Counted from the first letter of the stretch, positions 17,035-31,703 are shown. The stretch: 64,000 nucleotides of DNA from Candidatus Nanoarchaeia archaeon (GCA_036514715.1 DATBWR010000011.1:48102-112101); one strand, 5' to 3'. The notes: generated from the sequence alone by a model not told the origin. Program-made: numbers and translations.

Positions 17035-18012
17035 TTAAAGAACACCCCCGGTCGCGCTTCTTATCAAGACCACTGCCAGAATGACCAAAACACCAGCGTG
17101 AAGTAGAGAGTGGCTGTTTTCCCGAGAATGGCCTTTTCTAAAGAGAACGATAGAGTCAACCACGAACAAGGTGACTAAAATGGTTAGCAGAGCCAGAGTA
17201 GATTTCTGGCCAAAACCCAACCCTTTCCAAAAAGCCCCTAAATTGAAAGCTGGTATCGCAGTTCCGGAAATCTTTTCGTGCACTTCTTCAACGTTAGCCG
17301 AAGCGCTTGCAACCGAAGGTTTGGTTTCTGTTGTCGCCAAGGAGTCTTCTACTTTAGCCGGTTGGCTCCCACCACTGGCACCGCCTGCTGAAGAGCTTCC
17401 CGCACTGGTAGCACTTCCCAAAACTTTCCCAAGGTGTTGGACGACCAAAGTGGTCTCCTCTCCCTGCAAAATTCCATCTTTAACTCCAATTCCAATTTCA
17501 GTGAAATTGGGGTTCAATAAGTTGTCCTTGTGGCTAGTGCTACCCATCCAACCGGCAACTACACCCTCAGAAGTGGAAAAATCCCGGGCCAAATTTTCTC
17601 CGGCCCAAGAGTAGTTGTAACCAACCAGCTTGAAAAAGTACCAGGGACTGGTGCCATCGGGAGCGTAATGGGCCCAGTAATCTTTAGCAAACATGTCGCC
17701 TGCTTTCATCGTGGCCGCAGAATCTAGTTTGGAACTTTCTGCCAGAGGTTGCATGCCTGCTTTAACACGCTCCTGGTTAGTTAGATTAATAACCGCTGCT
17801 TGGGTAATGTTGGTTGCGTAACCTAAAACGCGGGCTCCGGCTACACCCCCAAAGGAAAAAAATTGGATCGCCAAAAGCAAAAAGGTGATGACAAACAAAC
17901 CTTCGTGGCGAATTAAGTAAGCGTGGTGGTTATTGGCTTGGTGAGGAACGAGAAATCGCGCCGCCTTTTTGATCAAAGGGGTTGACGCAACTTTCTCGAA
18001 GAGAGCAGACAT
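17035..18012 (-). CDS. CAP/SCP (PR-1-like, YkwD-type) domain protein, membrane-anchored
   Basis: 'LTNQERVKAG..PL..S.L..AA..KA.DM....YWAHY..DGTS.W...GENLA......GWM.S..H..NLL' CAP-domain pattern, with N- and C-terminal TM segments. Confidence 0.7.
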   Translation of the reverse strand: MSALFEKVASTPLIKKAARFLVPHQANNHHAYLIRHEGLFVITFLLLAIQFFSFGGVAGARVLGYATNITQAAVINLTNQERVKAGMQPLAESSKLDSAATMKAGDMFAKDYWAHYAPDGTSPWYFFKLVGYNYSWAGENLARDFSTSEGVVAGWMGSTSHKDNLLNPNFTEIGIGVKDGILQGEETTLVVQHLGKVLGSATSAGSSSAGGASGGSQPAKVEDSLATTETKPSVASASANVEEVHEKISGTAIPAFNLGAFWKGLGFGQKSTLALLTILVTLFVVDSIVLFRKGHSRENSHSLLHAGVLVILAVVLIRSATGGVL

Positions 18013-18097: not shown

Positions 18098-18925
18098 CTA
18101 GATACTTGAGCGGATTCGGTTGATACGTTCCGCCAACAGGGCTAGAGCTTCTTCCACTTCAACACCGTTGCGGCGCAGGATCAGACCAGCACCAATCAAA
18201 GCCAAAGAGACTACTACCAACAAACGAAACGGGTAGTCAAAACCAGTTATGGGTAGAGTTTTAGCAGCTGCCAAAACTGAACCAGGGGTCGGCAGAGGTC
18301 CTGGACCCTCACCCGGAGCTGGTGGTTTTAAGGCACCAATAATAATCTCGTTGAAATTGCCGGCGTTGTCAATATTAACGTTGATCCAAGCGTTTCCAGT
18401 TTTTATCCAACCGTTACCGCCGGTATTACCGCTAAGTGAGTTACCGCCGGTGTTAGCTCCCAACCAGAAGTTGTTGTCAATATCAAGCCATTTCGCATCG
18501 TATATGTTCAGGTTGTTATTAAAGTTTAAGGTAACTTTGTTGTCAGAGTCAGCTCCGTTACCCGAAACGCTCACGGCCGCGTCAATCGGATCGCAACAAC
18601 CAAGTTTAATTTTGTTAGCGTTAAGAGAGTTGTTAACCGTCAAATTAGTGGTTGCGTCTCCGGTAGTGATACCAACATCACCACCAGTGTTGTCCTCAGC
18701 CTCGTTATTACCGGTGTTGGAATTGGCCTTAACCGAGTTGTCAACGTCAGCATTGTTAGTCTGAACAATCTCAGTTTCTCGGCTCACATTAAAGTTTGCC
18801 TCATTATCTGAGTCGGCGCCGTTTCCGGAAACTTCAATAGTGAAGGCTCGGGCGCTAGATGCTGAACTTAATAATAGGGCAAGGGTGAGCAGGAGGACAG
18901 GCAAGAGAAATTTCGCCTTTTTCAT
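18098..18925 (-). CDS. secreted repeat protein with LPxTG-like sorting signal (surface protein family A)
   Basis: Signal peptide, two copies of the 'SGNGADSDN...NTG.NEAEDNTGGDV.ITTGDA' repeat, and C-terminal 'LPITG' plus hydrophobic stretch plus RR. Confidence 0.65.
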   Translation of the reverse strand: MKKAKFLLPVLLLTLALLLSSASSARAFTIEVSGNGADSDNEANFNVSRETEIVQTNNADVDNSVKANSNTGNNEAEDNTGGDVGITTGDATTNLTVNNSLNANKIKLGCCDPIDAAVSVSGNGADSDNKVTLNFNNNLNIYDAKWLDIDNNFWLGANTGGNSLSGNTGGNGWIKTGNAWINVNIDNAGNFNEIIIGALKPPAPGEGPGPLPTPGSVLAAAKTLPITGFDYPFRLLVVVSLALIGAGLILRRNGVEVEEALALLAERINRIRSSI

Positions 18926-18950
18926 AAATTACGGGCCTCCTTTCAAGGAC

Positions 18951-21155
18951 CTAGGCAGTTCTACGTCTTATTACCAGTAAGGCGTAAGCAGCTAGTACTA
19001 ATAAAGCTCCTCCTAACAAGAGTAAATTGAAAGAGAATTTTCCATTGGCACCGCCGTTAATCACTTTTGTGACCGGATTTTCGTTTTGAGTGGAAAGAGC
19101 ATTTTCCAAAATCTTACCGCCTTCTTCCAAAGCAGCCCCTAAGCTGGCTCCAGACAGCGCAGAAGTTTTGGATTTACCGCTAGTTATGCTGGTTCCGGCA
19201 GGTAAGTTAACACCACTGGCAACTCCATTTCCACCAACTGGACCACCGACCCCTGCCGGAATTTCTTGATCCGGTGGTACGATATTGCCGGTAAAGCTCC
19301 CAAAGACGTTCACGAAAACCAGCATTAGTTTTTTGCCGATAAAGTTGTTGTTGACAAAGTTAACGATGTTGCTGGCGACGTTAACATCACCAGTGTTAAT
19401 AGTGGCACCGCCCATATTACCATTAGCGTCGTTGTTACCAGTGTTGGCAGTAATATTAACGTTGTTGTTAATAAGGGCGTTGTTAGTCTGGTTAATCGTG
19501 GTTGAGTTACTGTTGTTAACTGATGCACCGTTAGTGGAGTCAGACCCATTACCGCTGTTGAGAGCGTAAATCGAACCATCTGGATTGAAACCAAATTCTA
19601 AAGTCCCCCCATCAATTAAGGCTCCGTCAGCGGCGCCGATAATTTGGCCGGTGTAGGTGCCTTGATTATTAACAATTACCAGCCACCAAGTGTCCCCGGC
19701 ACCAACCGTGTTGGTGTTGGCTACAGTTACCAAATTAGAGTTAACGTCCACGCCTCCGGTGGTCACTGAACTGTCGCCCATGTTCTTGTTGGCATCGTTA
19801 CCACCAGTGTTAGCGTTAATGTTTAGATTATTGTTAATCAGGGCGTTATTAATTAGGTTTATGTCAGTGGTATTGGTGTTTGTAACCGAGGCATCGTTCT
19901 CGCTCCCTGAGCCGTTACCGGTGTTTGTAGCAGTGATATCGGCCGCACAGCCGCAACTAGAAAGATCGGCTTCTCTTGGAAGAATAATATCACCGGACAT
20001 ATTGCCAAAAATGTTGACTGTGCCGATCAAAAGTTCAGCTCCAGCCATAAAAGTATTGTTGAGAAAGTTAATAATGTTGGAAACAATGTTGGCGTCTCCG
20101 GTTTCAATAACACCCGCACCCATGTTTTTGTCGGCTTGATTGCCTCCTGTACCAGCGTAAAGGTCAACGTTGTTATCCAAAATGAGGTTGTTTTCGCTGA
20201 CAAGGTTAGTGGTTGAACTATTATTAACGCCTGCAGTGTTGGTCGAGTCCGCTCCGTTGCCCGTGTTACCCGCACCCAACACTCCACCATTTCCGCTTCC
20301 TGTACCAGAGGGCCAAGTGATGTAAAGGTCTTCGCTTTGGTTATCAACGATATTGAAGTTAACAACGTTGGGATTAACAAGCGTGTTGCTACCCATATTG
20401 ACCGTGGTAAAGACTACGTCAGCATCCCCACTAACAATTACTCCGTCACCCATGTTTTTGTTGGCTTCGTTGCCTCCTGTGCTGGCGCCAACGTCTTCGT
20501 TATTAACTAAGTAGAGATCGTTAACATTACTAACATTAGTTGTTGAGTTGTTATCGATGTCAGCGTTGTTGGACGATCCGGAGCCATTACCAATGTTATT
20601 GGCTTCAAGACCACCAGTACAACCGCCACAACCATCGTTCAAGTTAATAATTGTAGTGTTTAGGTTGTTAGTTAAGTTACCATCAACGCTAGCATCGCCG
20701 GTGTGGATTACCCCAGAGCCCATGTTTTTGTTGGCATCATTTTCACCAGTCTCAACATCAACAATAATGTCATTGGTAACATCAGCATTATTTGAAGCTT
20801 CTACATCCGTTTCGTCAGTGACATCAACTTCACTATTATTATCAGAATCAGCTCCGTTACCGCTGTTGGTTGCTTCTGCTTGTGGTTGGTTCGTTCCCCA
20901 AGTGCTTCCTCCACTCCCACCGCTATCAGTTCCTGTAGTTGCTTGAGAGCTCGCTCCAGCATCTGGAGGCGGGCTCATCCAGGAAGGTAGGGCCGGAGAA
21001 TCCGGAGTTGCCGGTGTGCCCGTCGGTGTACTTGGAGCAGTTGGAATAGCCGGCGAACTTGGAGTGGCGATCGCCAAGGTAGCAGCCGGATAAACCATGT
21101 TTGCAGCAATCAGAGCTGCACTTACCAAAGATTTTACTTTTAGATATTTATTCAT
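18951..21155 (-). CDS. large secreted Asn/Gly/Asp-rich repeat protein (family A paralogue), C-terminal TM anchor with basic tail
   Basis: Signal peptide, about 8 repeats containing 'GNGADS.N' and 'TGGN.A.KNMG.GVI.TGDA.V', C-terminus 'LLLLGGALLVLAAYALLVIRRRTA'. Confidence 0.65.
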   Translation of the reverse strand: MNKYLKVKSLVSAALIAANMVYPAATLAIATPSSPAIPTAPSTPTGTPATPDSPALPSWMSPPPDAGASSQATTGTDSGGSGGSTWGTNQPQAEATNSGNGADSDNNSEVDVTDETDVEASNNADVTNDIIVDVETGENDANKNMGSGVIHTGDASVDGNLTNNLNTTIINLNDGCGGCTGGLEANNIGNGSGSSNNADIDNNSTTNVSNVNDLYLVNNEDVGASTGGNEANKNMGDGVIVSGDADVVFTTVNMGSNTLVNPNVVNFNIVDNQSEDLYITWPSGTGSGNGGVLGAGNTGNGADSTNTAGVNNSSTTNLVSENNLILDNNVDLYAGTGGNQADKNMGAGVIETGDANIVSNIINFLNNTFMAGAELLIGTVNIFGNMSGDIILPREADLSSCGCAADITATNTGNGSGSENDASVTNTNTTDINLINNALINNNLNINANTGGNDANKNMGDSSVTTGGVDVNSNLVTVANTNTVGAGDTWWLVIVNNQGTYTGQIIGAADGALIDGGTLEFGFNPDGSIYALNSGNGSDSTNGASVNNSNSTTINQTNNALINNNVNITANTGNNDANGNMGGATINTGDVNVASNIVNFVNNNFIGKKLMLVFVNVFGSFTGNIVPPDQEIPAGVGGPVGGNGVASGVNLPAGTSITSGKSKTSALSGASLGAALEEGGKILENALSTQNENPVTKVINGGANGKFSFNLLLLGGALLVLAAYALLVIRRRTA

Positions 21156-21296
21156 TCGTGTTCTTAAACTTTCAAATTCTAATTAGAACAGCCTCTTAAA
21201 CCACTCTAACTAAACTTCGAACTTCGTCCTTACCCTTTGGCTTCCCCTGGGCCCGCCCTCAAAGGGCGGGCCCAGAGAAAAGACCAACCTAACTAC

Positions 21297-22574
21297 CTAG
21301 GTGCCCCAGTGTCCTAAAAGGAGTAAGATCCACCCGTTCAAATCGTCCAGGTCAGGAAGATCCGGAAGGTCCGGAAAATCCACATCTCCTAGAACGTTTG
21401 AGTTAGCTTCAGTGCTGACTTCAACATCAGCTCCAGCATCACCGGTTTCAATAGTTGGATCCTCACCACCTTGGGTGTTATCCTTAGCGTCATTGTCACC
21501 AGTGTTGGAGTCAACGTCAACGTCGTTGCAGTCACTGCCCCTACCGTGTCCTCCCCCAAAGGAGGAGAGGAAACCTTGAGGGCCACCGTCGCAGTCATAG
21601 TCATTGGTTTGTTGAGCTGCCAAAAGTGCTTCTAGTTCAACGTTAACCTCATTCTCAGAATCAGCTCCGTTGCCAGCGATTTTAATTTCGCCAACAAGTT
21701 CGCAGCACTCATCGAGATTAAGACCGTTGAAGTTAGCTTCGTTACTGACACCAACTTCGACATCGGCATCACCAGTGTCGATTGCAACATCACCACCAGT
21801 GTTGTCTTCGGCTTCGTTGTTGCCAGAATTGGCGTCAACGTCAATGTCGTTCTCAATATCAGCGTTGTTTTCTTGAAGAACTCCAACTAAGCTAGCTACT
21901 CCCACGTTAGCGGTGTTCTTGGAGTCAGATCCGTTACCGGAAATTTCCACATCAATAGAACCACCGTCGCCGCCTCCAATGGAAGCAACGTTAGAGTTGA
22001 CCATATTCTTGACGTCAACCACTACGTCAGCATCACCAGTTTCGATCTCAACATCACCGCCGGTGTTGTCTTTAGCATCGTTGTCACCAGTGTTGGCATC
22101 AACGTCAATGTCGTTATCGACTTTGGCTTCATTGGTCTGCTCCACACCAACTTCTGAAATAAGTTCAACGTTGGCTTCGTTTTCGGAGTCTGAACCATTA
22201 CCGGAGATTTTGACGTCCAGATCACCAGGACAACCGCCACAAGACAAAGAAGCAACGTTGGAGTTAGCGCTGTTGGACACAGAGCTACTCACGTTAGCAT
22301 CCCCAGTGTCGATGGAAACATCACCACCAGTGTTGTCTTCAGCTTCGTTGTTGCCAGAATTGGCGTTAATCTTAACGCTATTATCAATGTCGGCGTTATT
22401 GGTTTGGACGAGTGTCGTGCTAGTGCTCACAGATACGTTAGCGGTGTTAGTCGAATCGGATCCATTACCACTAACGGTAACGGAAGTAGTTCCGAATGCA
22501 ACAGATGCTACGCTCCCTGTTAGCAAGGCTGCAGTAGAAACTGCAGTTGTTAGCTTGTATACTAGTTTGTTCAT
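21297..22574 (-). CDS. secreted repeat protein (family A paralogue)
   Basis: Signal peptide, 4-5 repeats of about 75 aa ('ISGNGSDS.N.ANV...NTG.N.A.DNTGGDV.I.TGDADV'), acidic DLPDLPDL tail. Confidence 0.65.
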   Translation of the reverse strand: MNKLVYKLTTAVSTAALLTGSVASVAFGTTSVTVSGNGSDSTNTANVSVSTSTTLVQTNNADIDNSVKINANSGNNEAEDNTGGDVSIDTGDANVSSSVSNSANSNVASLSCGGCPGDLDVKISGNGSDSENEANVELISEVGVEQTNEAKVDNDIDVDANTGDNDAKDNTGGDVEIETGDADVVVDVKNMVNSNVASIGGGDGGSIDVEISGNGSDSKNTANVGVASLVGVLQENNADIENDIDVDANSGNNEAEDNTGGDVAIDTGDADVEVGVSNEANFNGLNLDECCELVGEIKIAGNGADSENEVNVELEALLAAQQTNDYDCDGGPQGFLSSFGGGHGRGSDCNDVDVDSNTGDNDAKDNTQGGEDPTIETGDAGADVEVSTEANSNVLGDVDFPDLPDLPDLDDLNGWILLLLGHWGT

Positions 22575-22932
22575 TTACTATTCACCTCCTTTCGCAAAGA
22601 TATATTCAATTCTTTTTTGGAATTTCTTTTAATTTGTCTGGACACTTTCATGTAGATAGTAATTCTTCTTTGCTTAAACGAAAACGGAGGCAAACCTTCA
22701 CGCTTTTCATTAGCGTAAAAGCTTACCTCCGTTTGCGGTCGGTAAATTACTTAAACTAACAGTATTTAATTTCTAGGGCAGAAATAGGTAGGTGTGGTGT
22801 TACCGAAAAGAATTTTAGCCTACCAATAAATATTATGTGTGCTTTTTCCCAACCTGTCAAGTCCTGTAATTTTATTCAAAAAGGCCTTAATCTTACTAAC
22901 GAACCGGTCTTCTTTTTGTTACCTACGACCCT

Positions 22933-23136
22933 TTACCGCACCCGCCTTATGGCGCTGTTGTAACCTTCGGCCTTGACACTGGCAGTCTTTTTGATCGTCC
23001 TCTCGGTGATCTGAACCACTCTCCCTGACTCAATGTAAATTTCTACACTACCATACTCTTTGCTAACAATAGCTTCTTTAATTTCGTTTAAAATGCTTTC
23101 CGGCAGACTGTTGGCAGACATAGTTTCGTTCATCAA
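22933..23136 (-). CDS. small protein, DUF2292/YezD-like
   Basis: '..EYGSVEIYIESGRVVQITERT..' resembles the YezD family core 'GSV.I.vqdG.VvQIe'. Confidence 0.4.
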   Translation of the reverse strand: MMNETMSANSLPESILNEIKEAIVSKEYGSVEIYIESGRVVQITERTIKKTASVKAEGYNSAIRRVR

Positions 23137-23137
23137 T

Positions 23138-23755
23138 TTATAGAGAAAACTCTAAAACTACTTTTTCTGAATTGAGCTCGCCGATTTCAACTTTAAACTT
23201 GCTTTCCCCTTTGGGGATCACAAAACCAACGTTCGATGTTTTGGTTGACTGCGGGCGGATTTCCACATTACCCTGATGAGCAGTTGGTGCATACTTTTTA
23301 TCGTCATCGCCGATCAAACGGAAACTGTCAACCGGTTGTAAGTAAAGGGGCACGTTGTAAGGGTTGGAAAGTTCCATGTTAATAATTAAGAACTCCTTGC
23401 CGTTTCTGGCAATGACCCTTTGCCCTTGTACGAGCAAAGAGCCTGCTTTATAAGTGCCGGTAACATCAACGCTAATATCACCGTTAGTGTTCCTGCCGTC
23501 TTTAGTTTTGGCGGTTACTTCAAATTGCTGTGAAAGCCCCAAAACGTTGGGAGCCTCATTTGAAGAGTTGCCGCTAAAGAAAATAGTGTAGAGACCAAAG
23601 GCAGCCAGCAAGGTAAGGACTGTAAAGAAGATGCGGCGCGGTTTTGAGAAAAGGTAGACAAGCAAATTTTTGGATCCGGAAAAAATTCCAGAAAGAAAGG
23701 GTATTGAAAAGCGTCGGCGGACAACTTGCGCAGGAACAAAAGTTGTTACATTCAT
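23138..23755 (-). CDS. hypothetical membrane-anchored exported protein
   Basis: Start set at 23755 (ATG, AAAGGAAAA upstream). N-terminal TM, beta-rich extracellular domain. Confidence 0.4.
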   Translation of the reverse strand: MNVTTFVPAQVVRRRFSIPFLSGIFSGSKNLLVYLFSKPRRIFFTVLTLLAAFGLYTIFFSGNSSNEAPNVLGLSQQFEVTAKTKDGRNTNGDISVDVTGTYKAGSLLVQGQRVIARNGKEFLIINMELSNPYNVPLYLQPVDSFRLIGDDDKKYAPTAHQGNVEIRPQSTKTSNVGFVIPKGESKFKVEIGELNSEKVVLEFSL

Positions 23756-24108
23756 TAACAAATTTTCCTTTCTCTTCAAAATGCAAAAGCCAGCTTTAGG
23801 ACAGACTAAGTCTTTGGGCCGGCAGTGACTTTTAAGATCAAATCGACAATAAAAGTACCACAACAATATAGTATAGTCAAGAGGTTGTCAAGAGTTTTGT
23901 TTGGCTAATTTTTGCCTCATGGTTTCACGAGGAAAATTACTTACTAATCTAAGGAAATTCAGGTGTAAACAAATAAGCGCCCGCTCCATACCTAACCCTT
24001 ACATTATATATATGGGACTCGAAGACGAATCCAGTTTTCTCATTACTTCGAAAATAAGTTCCTACTTGAAACAAGTGGGTCGTTAAGGGGTCTGGTTTCG
24101 CTGACGGA

Positions 24109-24196
24109 AAGTAAGCCTCTAAGATAGAGGACTTCATTGCTTCGCAAAGTAAGCTTCTGAGATAAGAAAGCTTCATTGCTTCGCAAAGTAAGCCCG
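24109..24196. repeat. about 38-bp tandem direct repeat (2.3 copies) in a 600-bp intergenic region
   Basis: aagtaagcctctaagatagaggacttcattgcttcgca / aagtaagcttctgagataagaaagcttcattgcttcgca / aagtaagccc. Confidence 0.5.
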
Positions 24197-24300
24197 TTTT
24201 TCTGTAAGGGAGTCTAATCCTCCTAATAATACTAATATAATAGATATATTAGTATTAGCTGAATGGCTTTCCTTCTAGGCGTACAAGACATCTTTGGGAA

Positions 24301-24336
24301 AACAAAAAGCTCTGAAAGGGAATTCAGAGCTTTTTG
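24301..24336. terminator. bidirectional rho-independent terminator
   Basis: AAAAAGCTCTGAA-aggg-aaTTCAGAGCTTTTT, directly after the stop of 24363..24713 (minus strand). Confidence 0.55.
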
Positions 24337-24362
24337 CGTTAGGTTGATCTTTTCTCTTTTTC

Positions 24363-24713
24363 TTACGGACCAGGCGGCGGAGCCGCGTTGGAGTTAACGT
24401 TGTTGGTGATAGTTACCGTCACCGTGGAGTCACCAGTGTCAATACTCACATCTCCATCACCAGTGTTGAAACTAGCCTTATTACCACCAGTGTTGGAAAC
24501 CGTTATCACCCTGTTTTTGACACGAGCTACATTAATTTGAACAGTAGCCGACTTGTTCACTACTTTAATACGGCAGCGGTTGTGCGAGAAAGCGCCGTTA
24601 TCGGTAATGGTACAAGTGTTACCATCATCAGCTAGAGCAGCTGGAGCCAGTAACATACCAGCAGTAAGGGCTGCACCAGCAGTTGCTCCGACACGAGCAA
24701 TCAATTTATTCAT
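24363..24713 (-). CDS. small secreted protein carrying one family-A repeat unit
   Basis: Signal peptide 'AAALTAGMLLAPAALA', then '..NTGGNKASFNTGDGDVSIDTGDSTV..'. RBS GAGGAGGTG upstream. Confidence 0.6.
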   Translation of the reverse strand: MNKLIARVGATAGAALTAGMLLAPAALADDGNTCTITDNGAFSHNRCRIKVVNKSATVQINVARVKNRVITVSNTGGNKASFNTGDGDVSIDTGDSTVTVTITNNVNSNAAPPPGP

Positions 24714-24909: not shown

Positions 24910-26046
24910 CTAAGGTAGTTCGCATTTAATCAGCGTTTCTCCAGTGGTACAAGTGTCGATTCCGGAATTCCCGTTCAGATTGTCGGTTCCCGGACCACCG
25001 TCAAGTGAGTCATTGCCCGAACCCCCTTTGATATTGTCATTGCCGTTTTCCCCAAAAAGTTGGTCGATACCACTGCCACCGTCAATGTTATCGTTTTGGT
25101 CTCCGCCAAAGATTTGGTCGTTATCGCTGCCGCCTTTAATATTGTCTTCTCCCACTCCGCCGGTGATCTGGTCATCGCCGCTGCCCCCGTCAATGGTGTC
25201 GTTGCCAATCCCACCGTCAATCAAGTCGTTGCCAGACCCGCCTTTCAAATTATCGTTGCCTTCTCCGCCGACCACCAAGTCGTTACCGCTGCCACTGTCA
25301 ATAGTATCGTTGCCACCCTCACCCAAAATCACGTCGTTACCGCTGCTGTCGTTAACTCGATCGTTACCTTCACCGCCGACAATACAGTCATTACCACTAC
25401 CACCGTCAACCCGATCATTGCCCTCCAGAGCAAAAATCAGGTCGTTATTAGGTGTACCACGGATACGGTCGTTGCCGCTGGTTCCGAAAATTGGGTCACC
25501 GGTAAAATCAATGTCGTCGCAATCTTCGGGCGGGGCAATAACTATGCCAATAGAAAGGTCAAAAACAACAGTCGCCGTCTGAAATTCATTACCGGCACTT
25601 TGGGGAAAACAAACTGTGAAATCGTAATCAAAATTTTGACCAGAGTTGAGGTTACCCAAACTCAGGGCGTTAGGACCAGCGCTATCAGTGAAAAATTGGT
25701 CCAGAGTCTGTGGACCGTAAAGGCTGGTGGTTGTCGTAGAGTTTTCGATTTCGATTTCCAGAACCGACCCCAACGCAAGGTCTTCGTCGGTTTTTACACC
25801 GCGTACGCCAACTTCGCGGGTGACGGCTCCGGTATTAAGCACGTTGACTGTGCGGGTTTCACAATCCCCCGGTTTCATGTCATTGACCACAAAAATTGGA
25901 TCGCCACTGGGAACTCCCCAATCAATATCCAAATCCCCGACTGCCCGCACTGTGCTGGGGAACAAAGCATTAGCCACTGCCACGCTGATAAGTGCCAGTG
26001 TCAAAACCCCTATTCTAATAACCTGAAACTTTCTGTTTTTCTTCAT
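24910..26046 (-). CDS. secreted protein with RTX-type calcium-binding nonapeptide repeats
   Basis: More than 15 tandem 'GG.GND.I.' units (GGSGNDLIDGGIGNDTIDGGSGDDQI...). Signal peptide. Start overlaps the stop of the upstream gene by 4 nt. Confidence 0.75.
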   Translation of the reverse strand: MKKNRKFQVIRIGVLTLALISVAVANALFPSTVRAVGDLDIDWGVPSGDPIFVVNDMKPGDCETRTVNVLNTGAVTREVGVRGVKTDEDLALGSVLEIEIENSTTTTSLYGPQTLDQFFTDSAGPNALSLGNLNSGQNFDYDFTVCFPQSAGNEFQTATVVFDLSIGIVIAPPEDCDDIDFTGDPIFGTSGNDRIRGTPNNDLIFALEGNDRVDGGSGNDCIVGGEGNDRVNDSSGNDVILGEGGNDTIDSGSGNDLVVGGEGNDNLKGGSGNDLIDGGIGNDTIDGGSGDDQITGGVGEDNIKGGSDNDQIFGGDQNDNIDGGSGIDQLFGENGNDNIKGGSGNDSLDGGPGTDNLNGNSGIDTCTTGETLIKCELP

Positions 26047-27230
26047 TGGTCACAATTTCCAAACTCAGCTGTAATGGCGTCAATATCGAAACCATCTGCG
26101 TCTGATGTATGTGAATTGGGAAATGGTGTACTCTCCGTTAACCTTACGAACTTAATTGACGAAAGTCCTGTCCCAGAAAAACCCAACTCACTAATACCAT
26201 CGCCACCAACACCTGGTTCGCTAGTAACGTTACCTATGTTGTAATAAGTTATCCCATCCTGACTGACCTCAACTGTGGCTTGTTCTAACGGATATGTTGC
26301 TCGTCCGTTAGTTGCTTCATAAAAAGTAAGTATCGCAGGACCAACATCGAGAATTTGGTATGGAAAAACATAGGTGGCTACACCAGTATAAAACCCAAGA
26401 CTATAAAATCCTGTACTTCCACCAATAACCCAATCTTTTATTAATGCGGCATTGGGATCAGTTCTAGCCGGATTAGTTATTGGCGACCCATTTTTCAAAG
26501 TTCCTTGAGTTGTTTCCTCATCGATGTAACTAGCTAGTAGAGTTGGGTTCTCGTCGCAAAAGGCTTCGGCAGCAGAAAATACATTATTAGTACTCGTTTC
26601 AACATCACTGAAAAACGCGTGGGAGCTTCCCAAAAATATTGCGGCCATGAAAAACATCGCAAAAGGTTTAGCAAAGTCTAAATTGCTACTTTTCTGTGGT
26701 TTTTTCTTTAATTCTTCCCAAATGGAAATTAATTCGGAAATAATTATTAATAAGGTGGGAATGATTATCAGCAGGAAAAAGCCTAAGGGTTGTTTAACAA
26801 AATCCACAAACCTTCCAACATAAGGAACAGAAAGGTTAACTCTGCCAACCACGTCTTTCTCAGCAGTCAAAGAGCTGTCAGGGTCTTCGTTAGCATCTCC
26901 CTTTGTTTCAAACATTTTCTCGCCAGTGGCGCGATCCACTCTTACTACCCGGTGACTGACTAGCTCACTACCGGATTTAAAAGTGACAATATCACCTTCA
27001 ACGTAATTTACTCCCGCACCATCAAGGGGCTTTTTAGTTACAAGCACTAGGGAACCAGCCGGAACAGCGGGCTCCATACTGCCTGTCTTTACCACTAAAG
27101 GTTTTAGCGGTAAAGGCAAATTTAAGTACGCACCGATTGTCAGCAGCATAATGCTGCCAAACACGAGCAGTGTAGTTAATTTAAGTGTCGTTAGTAATAC
27201 TTTCAAACCTATACTCCAAATCCTTGACAA
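26043..27230 (-). CDS. SipW-type (S26B) signal peptidase I fused to a SipW-cognate signal peptide plus TasA-like substrate domain
   Basis: N-terminal half: TM, 'KTGSMEP' (Ser), 'VSHRVV' (His), 'KGDANEDPD' box, second TM. C-terminal half: 'KKKPQKSS..FAMFFMAAIFLGSSHAFFSDVETSTNNVFSAAEAF', which matches the SipW-cognate signal class, then about 190 aa. Confidence 0.7.
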   Translation of the reverse strand: MSRIWSIGLKVLLTTLKLTTLLVFGSIMLLTIGAYLNLPLPLKPLVVKTGSMEPAVPAGSLVLVTKKPLDGAGVNYVEGDIVTFKSGSELVSHRVVRVDRATGEKMFETKGDANEDPDSSLTAEKDVVGRVNLSVPYVGRFVDFVKQPLGFFLLIIIPTLLIIISELISIWEELKKKPQKSSNLDFAKPFAMFFMAAIFLGSSHAFFSDVETSTNNVFSAAEAFCDENPTLLASYIDEETTQGTLKNGSPITNPARTDPNAALIKDWVIGGSTGFYSLGFYTGVATYVFPYQILDVGPAILTFYEATNGRATYPLEQATVEVSQDGITYYNIGNVTSEPGVGGDGISELGFSGTGLSSIKFVRLTESTPFPNSHTSDADGFDIDAITAEFGNCDQ

Positions 27231-27343
27231 GGCCGGGCCTTGTCACCACTTGTCACCAACAATGCAGCTTTCCTCTTCGAGGTCCGAGGCCCCCAAGGTC
27301 CTCTTTGCTGTCCAAGGGGGCCTTAACTTTCAAACCTCGGACT

Positions 27344-28207
27344 CTAGAACCCTAGTTTCGAAGGGTTATTCCTGTGCTGAACCACTTGGAAGGACATGTT
27401 CGCTACCAAACTGTCTGTCTCGATTACATTACCAACACCTTCCGGAAGTTCCCAATCAATACCGAAGTAATAAGTTGTACTTCCAACCATACGTCCGTCT
27501 GATACAATCCCTGGGCTAGCTCCTTGGAGAGCGAAAACGGCAGCTAATCCTTGCCAAATGTTATGCGTTTCACTACCTGCATCAAGTGTACCTTGGGAAA
27601 CTAGCTCTGGTTCTTCTGCCTGTTTAATGTTGTCACCTTCTTGTGGGTCAGCACCACATTCAGCACCTAACCCTGAACACTGGAACCCATTGTTAGTTCC
27701 TTCATCTAACCAAATGCTGAACAGAAGATTTTCACGTAATTCCCCACTTGCTACTCCGTCAGGATCGCCTGCTTCCAATTCCTCTTGAAGGTAGGTGTTC
27801 TCTAGATCTTGAACACTGTTAATCACTAATCTTCCCCAAGCGTCGTTGTTAATAACGTGGAGACTGATTGTATTCTCACCACTATCACCAGGCTTGAGGT
27901 CGGAAAGATTGAAGAATTTGTGTGTTGGACCCAAGTCTGTTTGTGCCCAAGTACCGTCACAAGGATCACCCACCAAATCTGGTCGACTTGAACTTGTAGC
28001 TTCAAACTGCCATTGACTACTGGAATTACAGACTAATCCTGCGTAGTGGGCCTCGCTGTCAACCTTTAAGTCAAGACCTCCGGCCGAAAACGTGTTGCCA
28101 GTTGAAGTTTCACTATCGGTGAAGAAGGCGAAGGTGGCACCGATTAAGAGGGCTGCGGCGGCCGCGATCGTCAGACCGCTTGTTACCAATCTTTTGTTGA
28201 TTGTCAT
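27344..28207 (-). CDS. TasA/camelysin-like secreted protein with SipW-cognate class signal peptide
   Basis: 'KRLVTSGLTIAAAAALLIGATFAFFTDSETSTGNTFSAGGLDLKV' matches the SipW-cognate signal consensus (..GTFAyFSDtE.StgNtFtAGtLDL). Confidence 0.75.
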   Translation of the reverse strand: MTINKRLVTSGLTIAAAAALLIGATFAFFTDSETSTGNTFSAGGLDLKVDSEAHYAGLVCNSSSQWQFEATSSSRPDLVGDPCDGTWAQTDLGPTHKFFNLSDLKPGDSGENTISLHVINNDAWGRLVINSVQDLENTYLQEELEAGDPDGVASGELRENLLFSIWLDEGTNNGFQCSGLGAECGADPQEGDNIKQAEEPELVSQGTLDAGSETHNIWQGLAAVFALQGASPGIVSDGRMVGSTTYYFGIDWELPEGVGNVIETDSLVANMSFQVVQHRNNPSKLGF

Positions 28208-29265: not shown

Positions 29266-30297
29266 TTAGTAAACCCTTTCTTTTCTATTACGGAAAACCC
29301 ACATCAGAATTCCCAGTCCAATCAAGAGCAAAATAGGCAACCAAATAAGATTGTCCATGAAGTTAGTGACTGCACCAAGAACTTGGCCACTGGCAGCTCC
29401 TTGCGCACCAGTTAAGCCGATTGGGCCTTGTTCACCGATTGCACCAGTTTCTCCAGTTTCACCTAGAGAACCCTGTTCACCGGCAAGTCCTTGCGGACCG
29501 GTCAGTCCGATTGAACCCTGCGGTCCAGTCAAACCAGTCAGACCTTGCAAGCCTTGCTCACCAGTGTCTCCAATTTCACCTTGGATACCTTGGATCCCCT
29601 GAATACCCTGTATTCCGGGGTTTCCTTGCGCACCTTCAGGACCGGTTAAGCCGATTGGCCCTTGTGGCCCAGTCAACCCAATCACTCCTTGCAGACCTTG
29701 AGGACCAATTTCACCCTGAGGGCCAGTCAATCCGACCGGTCCTTGCAGACCAGTTAGACCCTGAGGTCCTTGGTCACCTTGAATACCCTGTACTCCAGGG
29801 TTTCCCTGTGCACCATCAGCTCCAGTCAACCCAATCGGTCCCTGTGGACCGGTTAAGCCAATTGGGCCTTGTGGACCAGCAGGTCCCTGTGGACCGGTAG
29901 CACCAACCTGGCAAGCACTAACTGTGAAAGCCCAGCTGTTAGTAGCTCCCAGATCACTGTGACCCGTACTGTGTCCATCCAGCTGCTGACTTCCACCTTC
30001 AGGATCATCATAGATAGTAGCAACTACTGTGTGGTTTCCCACAGAAACAGCTACGGGAGCAGGAGTTGACCAGAAAGTAGGTTCATCGTGGCGGTGAACA
30101 ATTGTCACACCGTCCAAAGTAACCACTAAATGGTCTGAAGTTTCATCATAATCAGCTGCACCGTAGAAAGTTAAGTTTTGAGGACCGCAACCAACACCAA
30201 TTCCAAAGACGCTGGCGCTTTCGGCCAAAACAGCGGAAGGACTAGCCAAAAAGGCTAAAGAAAGAATAATTCCAAGAAATTTTTTCAATTTGTTCAC
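29266..30297 (-). CDS. collagen-like triple-helix repeat protein with signal peptide and C-terminal TM anchor
   Basis: About 65 consecutive G-X-Y triplets ([19 protein letters not shown]...), N-terminal signal peptide, C-terminal '[23 protein letters not shown]'. Confidence 0.8.
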
Positions 30298-30476
30298 CCC
30301 CTTCGCTTAAGACTAAAAATAATAATATCTTGGTAACCTATAACTTTATGTTATATCTACTACTTTTTACTACAAATCAAGAAGATTGTCAAGTACAACT
30401 AAAATTAATTATGAACTTATAGTTCTACAATTTAGGTGAAATTTAACTAGTTATGGAAGATAAAAGCCAGAGGCGT

Positions 30477-31703
30477 TTAAAGACTACTAGTGTTGAGGAC
30501 TGGTTCGGGATGGCGGCCGGAAGGGTCGGTGTGGCCGGCTCCCAGTGGCTCGGCAACAGAGATAAGAGCGTTGCGCACTTGGATCCAAGTTGCCCCGGGG
30601 TTAGTTTTTAAGTAAAGTGCAGCCGCTCCAGCCACGTGGGGTGTGGCCATGCTTGTACCACTGATCGTTGCGTAAGAACTTCCTCGCCAAGTTGAATAAA
30701 TGTTAACTCCTGGAGCAGCGATATCAACCGCACTTCCATAGTTGGAAAACGAAGCAAAGGTATCATCGGCTCCGTAACTAGTTGGGATACCAACTCCACT
30801 GCTAGCACCATCAGAATCCGCCAGTGCCGAAACAGTAATGACGCTGTCATCGTAGGCAGCTGGTACGAAATTGGCAGCGTTAGCACTGCTGTTGCCAGTG
30901 GCAACCACCACAGTGATACCAGCGTCCCTCACCCGACAAATTGCTAGGTGCAACGCGTCAAAGTTGCTATTTCCACAATTATTATCACTTGTTCCTCCAC
31001 CGGCTAAACTCATGTTCATTACCTTAATGTTATAAGTAGCCGCATTAGCAACAACCCAATCAAGTCCACAAATTACCCCGGACCAAGTACCATTACCGCG
31101 GCGATCCAAAACTTTGACGGCGATCAATTTAGCCTGAGACGCTACCCCAACCACACCAGCTGTGTTGTCCAAAGCGGCAATTGTGCCAGCAACATGAGTG
31201 CCATGGCCATTATCGTCATTGGCATTGGAAGTTCTTTTCACGCAAGTCTTGTTGGCGATAATATTGGCCGCCAAATCCGGATGCGATAACTGAATACCAG
31301 TATCCACCACCGCCACTCCCACACCATTTGCCTCATTGGTGTTTATATCAGCTTCAACACGGTTAATTCCAGTTGGCAGGGTTTGTACTGCTGTACCGCT
31401 TAAATGGTTGGCAACACTAACTTCGCGATCTTCGGAAACAAATTTAACTCTTTTGTCCCTCCTCACCCTCTCCAGTTGGTTGGAATTAAACTTGGCTTTA
31501 TAACCTCTAACGCTTTGGTGATACCTTTCTTCGGCGGAAAACTGTCCTTCAGAGGACATTTGGTCCGTAGCCAACTCAACCTCGACATTATCTTTCAAGA
31601 CTACAATATAATCACGCGGTGGGCCTTCTTTGCGAGCTTGGGCGACAGTAAAGGAGACAATCAGTAGTAGCAGAGGTAGCACGATGAGGATTAGCTTTCT
31701 CAT
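30477..31703 (-). CDS. subtilisin-like serine protease (S8) with signal peptide and I9 propeptide
   Basis: Catalytic triad motifs 'VAVVDTGI' (Asp), 'HGTHVAGTIAA' (His) and 'GTSMATPHVAGAAAL' (Ser). Confidence 0.9.
   Translation of the reverse strand: MRKLILIVLPLLLLIVSFTVAQARKEGPPRDYIVVLKDNVEVELATDQMSSEGQFSAEERYHQSVRGYKAKFNSNQLERVRRDKRVKFVSEDREVSVANHLSGTAVQTLPTGINRVEADINTNEANGVGVAVVDTGIQLSHPDLAANIIANKTCVKRTSNANDDNGHGTHVAGTIAALDNTAGVVGVASQAKLIAVKVLDRRGNGTWSGVICGLDWVVANAATYNIKVMNMSLAGGGTSDNNCGNSNFDALHLAICRVRDAGITVVVATGNSSANAANFVPAAYDDSVITVSALADSDGASSGVGIPTSYGADDTFASFSNYGSAVDIAAPGVNIYSTWRGSSYATISGTSMATPHVAGAAALYLKTNPGATWIQVRNALISVAEPLGAGHTDPSGRHPEPVLNTSSL

Follow-up and report, generated by a model that had tools for sequence, protein, structure and literature searches.

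Structure of the repeat protein locus

We examined a 64,000-nt (64-kb) stretch of DNA (positions 48102-112101 of contig DATBWR010000011.1, assembly GCA_036514715.1; hereafter, the window) that carries a cluster of genes for proteins built from one shared repeat. The four repeat protein genes, which we named by type and by length in amino acids (A275, B734, C425 and D116; Table 1), are this genome's copy of a cluster that is conserved in the Microgenomates. The product of this cluster is most likely a core structure of the cell surface, as opposed to a set of fast-evolving adhesins. An initial annotation of the window had described the four open reading frames (ORFs) as paralogous secreted proteins. 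All four are present, all on the minus strand, and one common repeat occurs in every one of them. Their description as paralogues that are secreted or anchored is supported. Each also begins with a plausible Sec signal peptide, as had been proposed: by inspection, a basic n-region precedes a hydrophobic core, and the putative cleavage sites are AxA-like (ARA↓F, TLA↓I, VAFG↓T and ALA↓D).

Table 1 Features of the repeat protein cluster in the window.
Feature	Coordinates (nt)	Strand	Basis
A275 (A-type, 275 aa, 2 repeats)	18098..18925	minus	ORF call
B734 (B-type, 734 aa, 5 repeats)	18951..21155	minus	ORF call
GC-rich hairpin after C stop	21242..21280	minus	18-bp stem
C425 (C-type, 425 aa, 4 repeats)	21297..22574	minus	ORF call
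Leader hairpin of C gene with U-run	22685..22731	minus	conserved in relatives
Sigma-70-type promoter of C gene	22832..22860	minus	TTGACA-17-CATAAT
DUF2292 (YezD-like) protein gene, 67 aa	22933..23136	minus	PF10055
DUF4352 membrane protein gene	23138..23755	minus	PF11611
D116 (D-type, 116 aa, 1 diverged repeat)	24363..24713	minus	ORF call

By motif searches and repeat alignment we counted two, five, four and one repeats in A275, B734, C425 and D116, respectively, in place of the one to about eight copies first estimated, and a profile search found that relatives outside the window carry up to about 10. The conserved core of the repeat spans ~78-80 aa (put earlier at roughly 75 aa), and its period is 88 aa in C425 and 90-122 aa in B734. 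The core motif that had been called invariant is not, as B734 shows KNMG in place of DNTGG; the positions that are invariant in 11/11 copies are N7, G8, S11, N13, N35, G44, N46, N51, G53 and G61, and identity to the first copy across the window's 11 copies is 28-63%. The single repeat of D116 is a full, diverged copy and not a half copy. No tandem repeat of period 264 was detected at the DNA level, which indicates that the repeat copies are old and not recent duplicates.

A conserved gene cluster usually paired with a sortase

By scanning species-representative genomes with a 13-sequence alignment as query, we obtained 79 related loci, called ORFs in all of them, and searched these ORFs with the repeat hidden Markov model and a jackhmmer sortase profile (55 sortases). 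By record title, named Microgenomates-group lineages account for 29/79 loci (Curtiss-, Davies-, Levy-, Woese-, Gottesman-, Roizman-, Chisholm-, Shapiro- and Woykebacteria), the other labels being generic ('Patescibacteria group' or 'bacterium'; 16 loci), 'uncultured Gammaproteobacteria/Pseudomonadales' (31 loci) or other (3 loci). Since the 31 Gammaproteobacteria/Pseudomonadales loci, which come from bulk submissions of metagenome-assembled genomes, are syntenic with the rest, we read their labels as placeholders.

Across the 79 loci, which are nearly all from Microgenomates (Patescibacteria) and span many of their lineages, repeat numbers are stable (C 4, B 4-5, A 2-3) and the genes follow a fixed order: a gene for a transmembrane (TM) protein with a DUF4352 domain, a DUF2292 gene, C, B, A and usually a sortase, often with a small D gene (1-2 repeats) nearby. 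B lies directly 3' of C in 60/64 loci, and A follows B in 43/57. The TM-DUF4352 gene stands directly 5' of C on the same strand in all 67 loci with enough upstream sequence, and 58 of these 67 also have the DUF2292 gene 5' of C. Such fixed architectures and order contradict rapid evolution of copy number, and the earlier suggestion that repeat copy-number variation among the paralogues points to rapid change of the kind seen in host-interaction surface proteins is not supported.

The upstream extension of the unit, that is, the DUF4352 and DUF2292 genes together with the promoter and leader hairpin described below, had been missed. In the window, the DUF4352 protein has 205 aa when read from the ATG at 23755 (a longer ORF, 23138-23866, starts at an upstream TTG), with a predicted extracellular domain and a match to PF11611 (E=2e-8) above the curated cut-off. 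The small, cytoplasmic DUF2292 protein scores 26.5 bits with PF10055, whose cut-off is 22. Mycobacterial Mpr, which acts in phage resistance and is the one characterised DUF4352 protein that we found, offers no clear lead for this cluster.

The initial annotation had also assigned a sortase-type sorting signal to one of the proteins, here A275, and this agrees with the relatives, where a sortase gene lies directly 3' of A in 36/41 loci; the sortases of the relatives exceed the Pfam cut-off. These sortases fall into two subgroups that track the sorting motif of the neighbouring A-type protein. Subgroup 1 (27 loci) adjoins (V/I)LP[AVIT][TSA]G or VLAAAG signals in nearly every case, and the same holds for subgroup 2 (17 loci) and (I/V)LGLSxTS-type signals; the 2-3 exceptions to the pairing include L017, L021 and L070. 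Co-variation of sortase subgroup and A motif makes a good case for A as the substrate of the adjoining sortase.

A large repeat family without a named domain

A profile of the 11 window copies matched 3,529 protein clusters (defined at 50% identity) at E≤1e-3, with a best E of 2.7e-112, so that the repeat stands far above chance. Two stable size classes dominate among these clusters, of about 400-440 aa (4 repeats) and about 720-800 aa (5 repeats), which likewise speaks against rapid change in copy number. Database records call the family members 'hypothetical protein' wherever they are named. That the repeat matches no named domain, as first supposed, held up in searches that could equally have placed it in a known family: neither Pfam nor NCBIfam gave a domain in the four window proteins, Pfam gave nothing consistent on 69 orthologues, and PDB sequences gave no match by phmmer or by the repeat profile. 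By hhalign, the repeat profile showed no relation to E. coli CsgA (manually entered sequence; probability 0.2%). In literature on Patescibacteria or Microgenomates combined with sortase, amyloid, LPXTG or S-layer, we found no description of the repeat family. The family and its locus appear to be undescribed so far, although surface assemblies of sortase-linked beta-repeat proteins are as such a known kind of system.

Anchored and free repeat proteins

The four proteins differ in how they would be held at the cell surface. A275 starts with MKKAKFLLPVLLLTLALLLSSASSARA↓F, a Sec signal peptide by inspection, and carries repeats at aa 29-110 and 117-198 followed by a Pro/Gly linker. Its sorting signal consists of LPITG at aa 224-228 (nt 18242-18256), then FDYPFRLLVVVSLALIGAGLIL and RR, which confirms the ending of LPITG, hydrophobic segment and RR first reported and adds a 22-aa tail beyond RR that is atypical for LPXTG sorting signals. 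TIGR01167 (LPXTG_anchor) gave no match to A275 at E≤1 and scored 10.6 bits on B734, below its cut-off of 15.9.

B734 has repeats at aa 94-175, 184-265, 294-375, 408-489 and 530-611, with insertions of 20-35 aa after repeats 3-5, a Pro/Thr-rich N-terminus and a Gly/Ser linker. Its C-terminus (aa 707-734) comprises FSFN, a TM helix and RRRTA, the latter two as initially annotated. Among B-type relatives, 46/60 tails have [IVLF]NLA[WY] at the start of the TM helix, with basic residues after it, and this layout of motif, TM helix and basic residues resembles a sorting signal for some processing enzyme. The B734 equivalent of the motif is FSFNLLLL, part of the C-terminus encoded at window 18954-19037 (minus strand).

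C425 carries repeats at aa 31-112, 120-201, 208-289 and 296-403, has 83 Asp and Glu versus 9 Lys and Arg residues, and ends without an anchor in an acidic, Leu-rich tail. Its cysteines (aa 112, 115, 290, 291, 328 and 349) lie mostly in linkers and in an insertion in repeat 4, and the pairs CGGC and CC are located in the inter-repeat linkers. There are more than 1,390 C homologues of about 400-440 aa, none of them named, and this class is the most conserved and most numerous. C-type proteins are polyanionic in 71/71 cases, with a mean net charge of -59 or about -15 per 100 aa, and their acidic, Leu-rich tails lack basic residues in 68/70 cases. The net charge per 100 aa is lower in magnitude for B (-7) and A (-5), and D is about neutral, half of the D-type proteins being net positive. 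D116 itself has an isoelectric point of about 8 and is not acidic. Its one repeat spans aa 33-110, its Cys34 and Cys47 correspond to repeat positions 2 and 15, which form the strongest covarying pair, and its 22 homologues are all unnamed. By inspection, mature A, C and D start straight at repeat 1 and have no N-terminal cap.

These properties bear on a view close to that of the initial annotation, in which each paralogue of an episymbiotic cell would bind a host or substrate alone as an independent adhesin, with the repeats acting as a stalk that displays variable surfaces and no co-assembly. The proteins are secreted or anchored as this would require, and the fast-varying part of the repeat is the outward strand face (about 3.2 bits of entropy per position), with the buried face and core conserved. 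The cultivated Patescibacteria are described in the literature as episymbionts, and the predicted structure (below) gave weak Foldseek matches to the solenoid adhesins SRRP, Ag43, TibA and PfbA. We nevertheless consider independent adhesins unlikely: class C, the most conserved and numerous, has no anchor; three classes hold their repeat numbers and order across very divergent lineages; no recent copy-number change is seen; and the uniformly polyanionic character of C suggests a bulk material over a specific ligand binder. We propose that the C-type protein is the major subunit of a surface structure.

Expression signals around the C gene

The C gene is accompanied by conserved signals in DNA and RNA. 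In the window, the promoter of the C gene is near consensus. In 34/40 loci a promoter that matches at 10/12 positions or better stands 58-190 nt 5' of the leader hairpin, versus 6.7% of control windows, and TTGACA is perfect in 36/40 loci. The leader hairpin follows the pattern CCGCAAAC-GGAGG-(variable stem)-CCTCC-GTTTTCGTTT, about 110 nt 5' of the C start codon. Its base and flanks are almost invariant (3' side GTTTT, GTTTTYKTTT) and its stem is variable. The hairpin is found in 41-43 of about 68 loci as 41 distinct sequences (e.g. L002 9830-9877), with means of 19 bp, a folding free energy (dG) of -27.8 kcal/mol and a z-score of -7.7; in the window it has 20 bp and is followed by a U-run. 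The pattern occurs 43 times just 5' of C genes versus about 5 times elsewhere in 1.3 Mb of loci, and Rfam gave no match to the hairpin. The arms of the stem are Shine-Dalgarno-like and anti-Shine-Dalgarno-like. This terminator-like element may serve in attenuation, as a target of RNase III or in stabilising the mRNA.

A further hairpin starts 17 nt past the C stop codon in the window (18-bp stem, z -5.3), with a second one at about 21172-21221. Of 60 loci, 58 have a similar hairpin just 3' of the C stop (mean dG -33.7 kcal/mol, z -6.1), which suggests that transcription partly terminates between C and B/A or that the two parts of the mRNA differ in stability. The hairpins 3' of C are mostly without a U-run, and by eye a GCACUUC recurs in the loop region of many relatives. 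We infer that C has its own strong, structured and probably stabilised transcript, and that C is an abundant subunit relative to B and A; its own promoter and flanking hairpins fit C being made in excess over both.

Predicted fold of the repeat

An AlphaFold2 (AF2) model of C425, built with 69 orthologues, reached a predicted local distance difference test (pLDDT) score of 74.9 and a predicted template modelling (pTM) score of 0.65. It consists of beta structure throughout, and one pattern recurs in every repeat: a 6-residue strand, the GNGxDS loop, an unbroken 33-residue strand, short strands around DNTGGD/TGD, an 18-residue strand and an 8-residue linker. The top 50 Foldseek matches of this model in the PDB were all parallel beta-helix, beta-roll or cross-beta amyloid structures (FapC, CsgA, SufD, pectate lyases, Ag43, TibA, SRRP and tailspikes among them), none of them significant, and matches in the viral library BFVD were likewise parallel-beta and non-significant.

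Direct coupling analysis (DCA) of 1,545 repeat units from 508 proteins (effective 1,360 sequences) gave robust antidiagonal couplings of positions 25-48 with positions 56-79 (sums 104-106), a pattern that recurs separately in C-type and B-type repeats. Buried (odd) strand-2 positions couple only with buried strand-3 positions, each strand-2 residue having two partners. The coupled face comprises positions 15, 17, 19, 25, Q27, N29, 31, 33, N35, 37, 39 and 41 of strand 2 and positions 56, 58, 63, 65, 67, 69, N71, 73, N74, N76 and 78 of strand 3, and includes the buried polar pairs Q27-N76, N29-N74 and N35-N71. The exposed face shows no cross-strand coupling despite an entropy of about 3.2 bits per position.

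The AF2 model, its Foldseek neighbours and the covariation make the beta-solenoid fold that had been suggested for these proteins plausible. As modelled, the protein would be a flattened parallel beta-solenoid of two sheets and great width, in which each 88-aa repeat makes up one rung. The 33-residue strand is unbroken, so that the rung must be the whole 88-residue repeat; the model is read as a parallel solenoid because all of its top 50 Foldseek matches are parallel-beta; and coupling on one face only points to face-to-face packing of two sheets, which is atypical of a hydrogen-bonded hairpin. One long strand (positions 12-48) would pack face to face on three elements, namely the long strand that comes next (56-80), the linker and the initial short strand, with GNGxDS and DNTGG as two tight turns and a core of small hydrophobic residues and invariant Asn/Gln. 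Asn/Gln ladders are known from solenoids such as pectate lyase and curli, and the buried Asn/Gln here recall such ladders. Sub-repeats of 22 or 44 aa were considered and ruled out, there being no constant-offset couplings and no break in the 33-residue AF2 strand.

The same data can be read in another way, with the solenoid as a prediction artefact and the repeats as separate small beta domains (hairpin or sandwich) that serve as beads-on-a-string spacers or wall-spanning rods. We judge this improbable, since a single repeat gives no confident AF2 fold against a pTM of 0.65 for four repeats, only one strand face is conserved, hydrophobic and covarying while exposed-face pairs are silent, several invariant Asn/Gln are buried as in solenoid ladders, and the Foldseek neighbours are exclusively parallel-beta. 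It does draw support from the antidiagonal covariation, which a hydrogen-bonded hairpin is also expected to produce, from the existence of the one-repeat D116, whose cysteines at positions 2 and 15 would suit a local hairpin disulfide, and from the lack of a significant structural match; columns of like charge, a difficulty for stacked rungs, cause none for separate domains.

Comparison with known surface systems

In Streptomyces, long chaplins (ChpA-C) carry a sortase signal, short chaplins (ChpD-H) are secreted, and the two form a joint surface polymer. The present cluster is similar in having a small beta-forming domain in paralogues of varying copy number, some anchored and some free. It differs in that the chaplin domain is about 40 aa long and hydrophobic whereas this repeat is about 80 aa long, polar and acidic, and in having in addition a membrane-anchored B, DUF4352 and DUF2292 partners and a Patescibacteria host. 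The chaplin family PF03777 gave no Pfam match in the four proteins or the 69 orthologues.

With curli and FapC the repeat proteins share tandem repeats rich in Asn, Gln, Gly and Ser, each a predicted strand-turn-strand rung with Asn/Gln inside, as well as the combination of a nucleator or anchor paralogue and a secreted major paralogue. FapC (9u4u) and CsgA (8c50) were among the best, non-significant Foldseek matches. The rung is however 88 aa long here versus about 22 in CsgA and about 40 in FapC, and the curlin family PF07012 was matched neither by the four proteins (E≤1) nor by the 69 orthologues (E≤0.1). Export and attachment also differ, with a Sec signal peptide and sortase or TM anchoring here versus the outer-membrane pores CsgG or FapF. 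General neighbour scans turned up no csgG, csgE or csgF, none of these scans being aimed at those genes. For bacteria of the candidate phyla radiation (CPR), a monoderm envelope is assumed (PMC8871954).

A-type proteins have the layout of LPXTG substrates, including those of sortase pili (signal peptide, LPxTG, hydrophobic segment, basic residues), with the sortase adjoining its substrate in relatives. Unlike in sortase pili, the sorting signal is on A only, so that the sortase cannot link C or B covalently, and neither CnaA/CnaB-type nor pilin Ig domains were matched by Pfam in the four proteins or the 69 orthologues. This cluster also departs from LPXTG systems in that some loci pair another motif, LGLSxTS, with another sortase subgroup. 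As for S-layers, Pfam gave no SLH or other S-layer wall-binding module in the four proteins or the 69 orthologues.

RTX proteins and the antifreeze protein MpAFP (3p4g) are alike in their parallel beta repeats rich in Gly, Asp and Asn and their acidic turns, and were matched weakly by Foldseek. The RTX family PF00353 and the GGxGxDxUx nonapeptide were absent from the four proteins, in the same search that gave E=5e-44 for the neighbouring protein encoded at 24910-26046; this repeat is moreover ten times longer, and its proteins have N-terminal Sec signals as opposed to the C-terminal signals of type I secretion. This comparison bears on whether the proteins form a cation-, mineral- or ice-binding coat, in which acidic flat beta surfaces rich in Asn, Thr, Gly and Asp would chiefly bind Ca2+ or other metals (for buffering, cross-linking of the wall or nucleation of minerals) or ice and assembly would be secondary. 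We hold such a coat to be very unlikely. No HemolysinCabind or other Ca-binding family was matched in the four proteins, and three anchoring modes and a dedicated sortase would be left unexplained. What speaks for it is the net charge of about -59 per C protein, turn motifs rich in Asp, Asn and Gly, the weak matches to 3p4g (a Ca2+-dependent beta-helical antifreeze protein) and 7usl (an RTX block), and the RTX-repeat protein encoded next door (24910-26046).

TasA/camelysin with its peptidase SipW resembles the present cluster as a monoderm biofilm or surface fibre system, and such genes adjoin the cluster in the window. Neither Peptidase_M73 nor a SipW-cognate signal (TIGR04088) was found in the four proteins, whose signal peptides look ordinary, whereas the neighbour at 27344-28207 has both. 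SipW/TasA as a part of the system was rejected in favour of a separate module, being co-located in only 12-15 of 82 loci (the 79 loci plus L001-L003).

Proposed assembly at the cell surface

Considering gene order, anchoring, charge and predicted fold, we propose that anchored A and B carry stacks of secreted C and form with them a surface fibre or layer, a tentative reading that we place slightly short of an even chance. A would be linked to peptidoglycan by the sortase and B held in the membrane, and free C subunits would stack edge to edge on both. Stacking is proposed because all classes share the same rung and because mature A, C and D begin with the repeat, uncapped. The strong negative charge would call for cations such as Ca2+; D might act as a cap, nucleator or neutraliser of the stack, and the DUF4352 and DUF2292 proteins could have accessory roles. 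In its fullest form the system would be a new cross-beta polymer with ~88 residues per rung (~10 nm), anchored seed paralogues and cation stabilisation, making up surface layers or fibres of Microgenomates at an expression level set by a lineage-specific, structured leader RNA; we regard this as conceivable but doubtful.

A number of observations weigh against the proposed fold and assembly. By the TLxTC motif and the jackhmmer profile of 55 sortases, no sortase is encoded in the window; in the closest relatives (L002-L006), a gene for a CAP-domain protein occupies the sortase place. Foldseek gave no significant match to the C425 model in the PDB or in BFVD (best E=0.025, template modelling score ≤0.14), AF2 may over-predict solenoids for repetitive sequences, and the failure of D116 to fold when modelled alone (pLDDT 52, no secondary structure) may only reflect its shallow alignment (32 rows). 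The rung geometry is deduced from DSSP strand assignments, the types of Foldseek matches and covariation, not from model coordinates. Couplings of equal positions in adjacent repeats are strong, yet unusable as evidence for stacking, because similarity is higher among the repeats of one protein (0.47-0.585), adjacent or not, than among orthologous repeats (0.44-0.51). A test for salt-bridge ladders failed: at equal positions there is an excess of pairs with like charge and a deficit of pairs with opposite charge, so that in-register stacking would superpose Asp/Glu unless cations bind. The GNGxDS and DNTGG turns are coupled (positions 7-10/50-54; e.g. C425 aa 37-40/80-84), reproducibly in C- and B-types, which a flat rung with turns at opposite ends does not explain; this coupling may reflect lateral contact between molecules, joint binding of a cation or a lineage sector.

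Genomic neighbourhood and source organism

The cluster lies in an island of secreted and envelope proteins. On one side, a CAP/YkwD protein is encoded at 17035-18012. On the other, an adjacent minus-strand module (24910-28207) comprises genes for an RTX-repeat protein (PF00353), for a signal peptidase of the SipW type and for a TasA/camelysin-like protein, the last of which (27344-28207, minus strand) carries a SipW-type signal peptide. This module accompanies the repeat cluster in only 12-17 of the 82 loci. The peptidase (26043-27230, minus strand, 395 aa) has a long C-terminal extension with a TIGR04088-like motif at aa 194-221 (19.4 bits against a cut-off of 19), and the syntenic L002 homologue has an LTD domain; it may be a SipW-like peptidase fused to a substrate-like domain. 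Also nearby (29266-31703, minus strand), one gene codes for a protein of collagen triple helix repeats (PF01391, E=3e-28) and another for a subtilase that has an I9 propeptide. A 39-nt tandem repeat (24108-24194; 2.3 copies, 85% matches) is located between the D116 and DUF4352 genes.

The record is labelled 'Candidatus Nanoarchaeia archaeon' or 'uncultured archaeon' (proteins HEY4694908.1-HEY4694913.1 and QBM01946.1-QBM01951.1). Because the window holds bacterial genes (GatA/GatB, a family-A DNA polymerase, a bL19 homologue by synteny with L002, and a sortase signal) and all of its relatives are Microgenomates, the archaeal label is probably wrong.

Implications for Microgenomates cell surfaces

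Microgenomates are a large uncultivated branch of the Patescibacteria, and there is next to no molecular description of their cell envelope (PMC8871954). A single, strongly conserved locus that has a strong promoter and encodes free, membrane-held and wall-linked repeat proteins is a candidate for their main surface structure, and as such a target for antibodies, for assignment in cryo-electron tomography, for metaproteomics and for studies of host attachment. With 3,529 clusters, the repeat family merits a Pfam entry, and with its two pairs of sortase and motif (LPxTG and LGLSxTS) the cluster lends itself to testing how specific sortases are in CPR bacteria. Should the fold prove to be as predicted, beta-solenoids and functional amyloids would come to include rungs about four times wider than those of curli.

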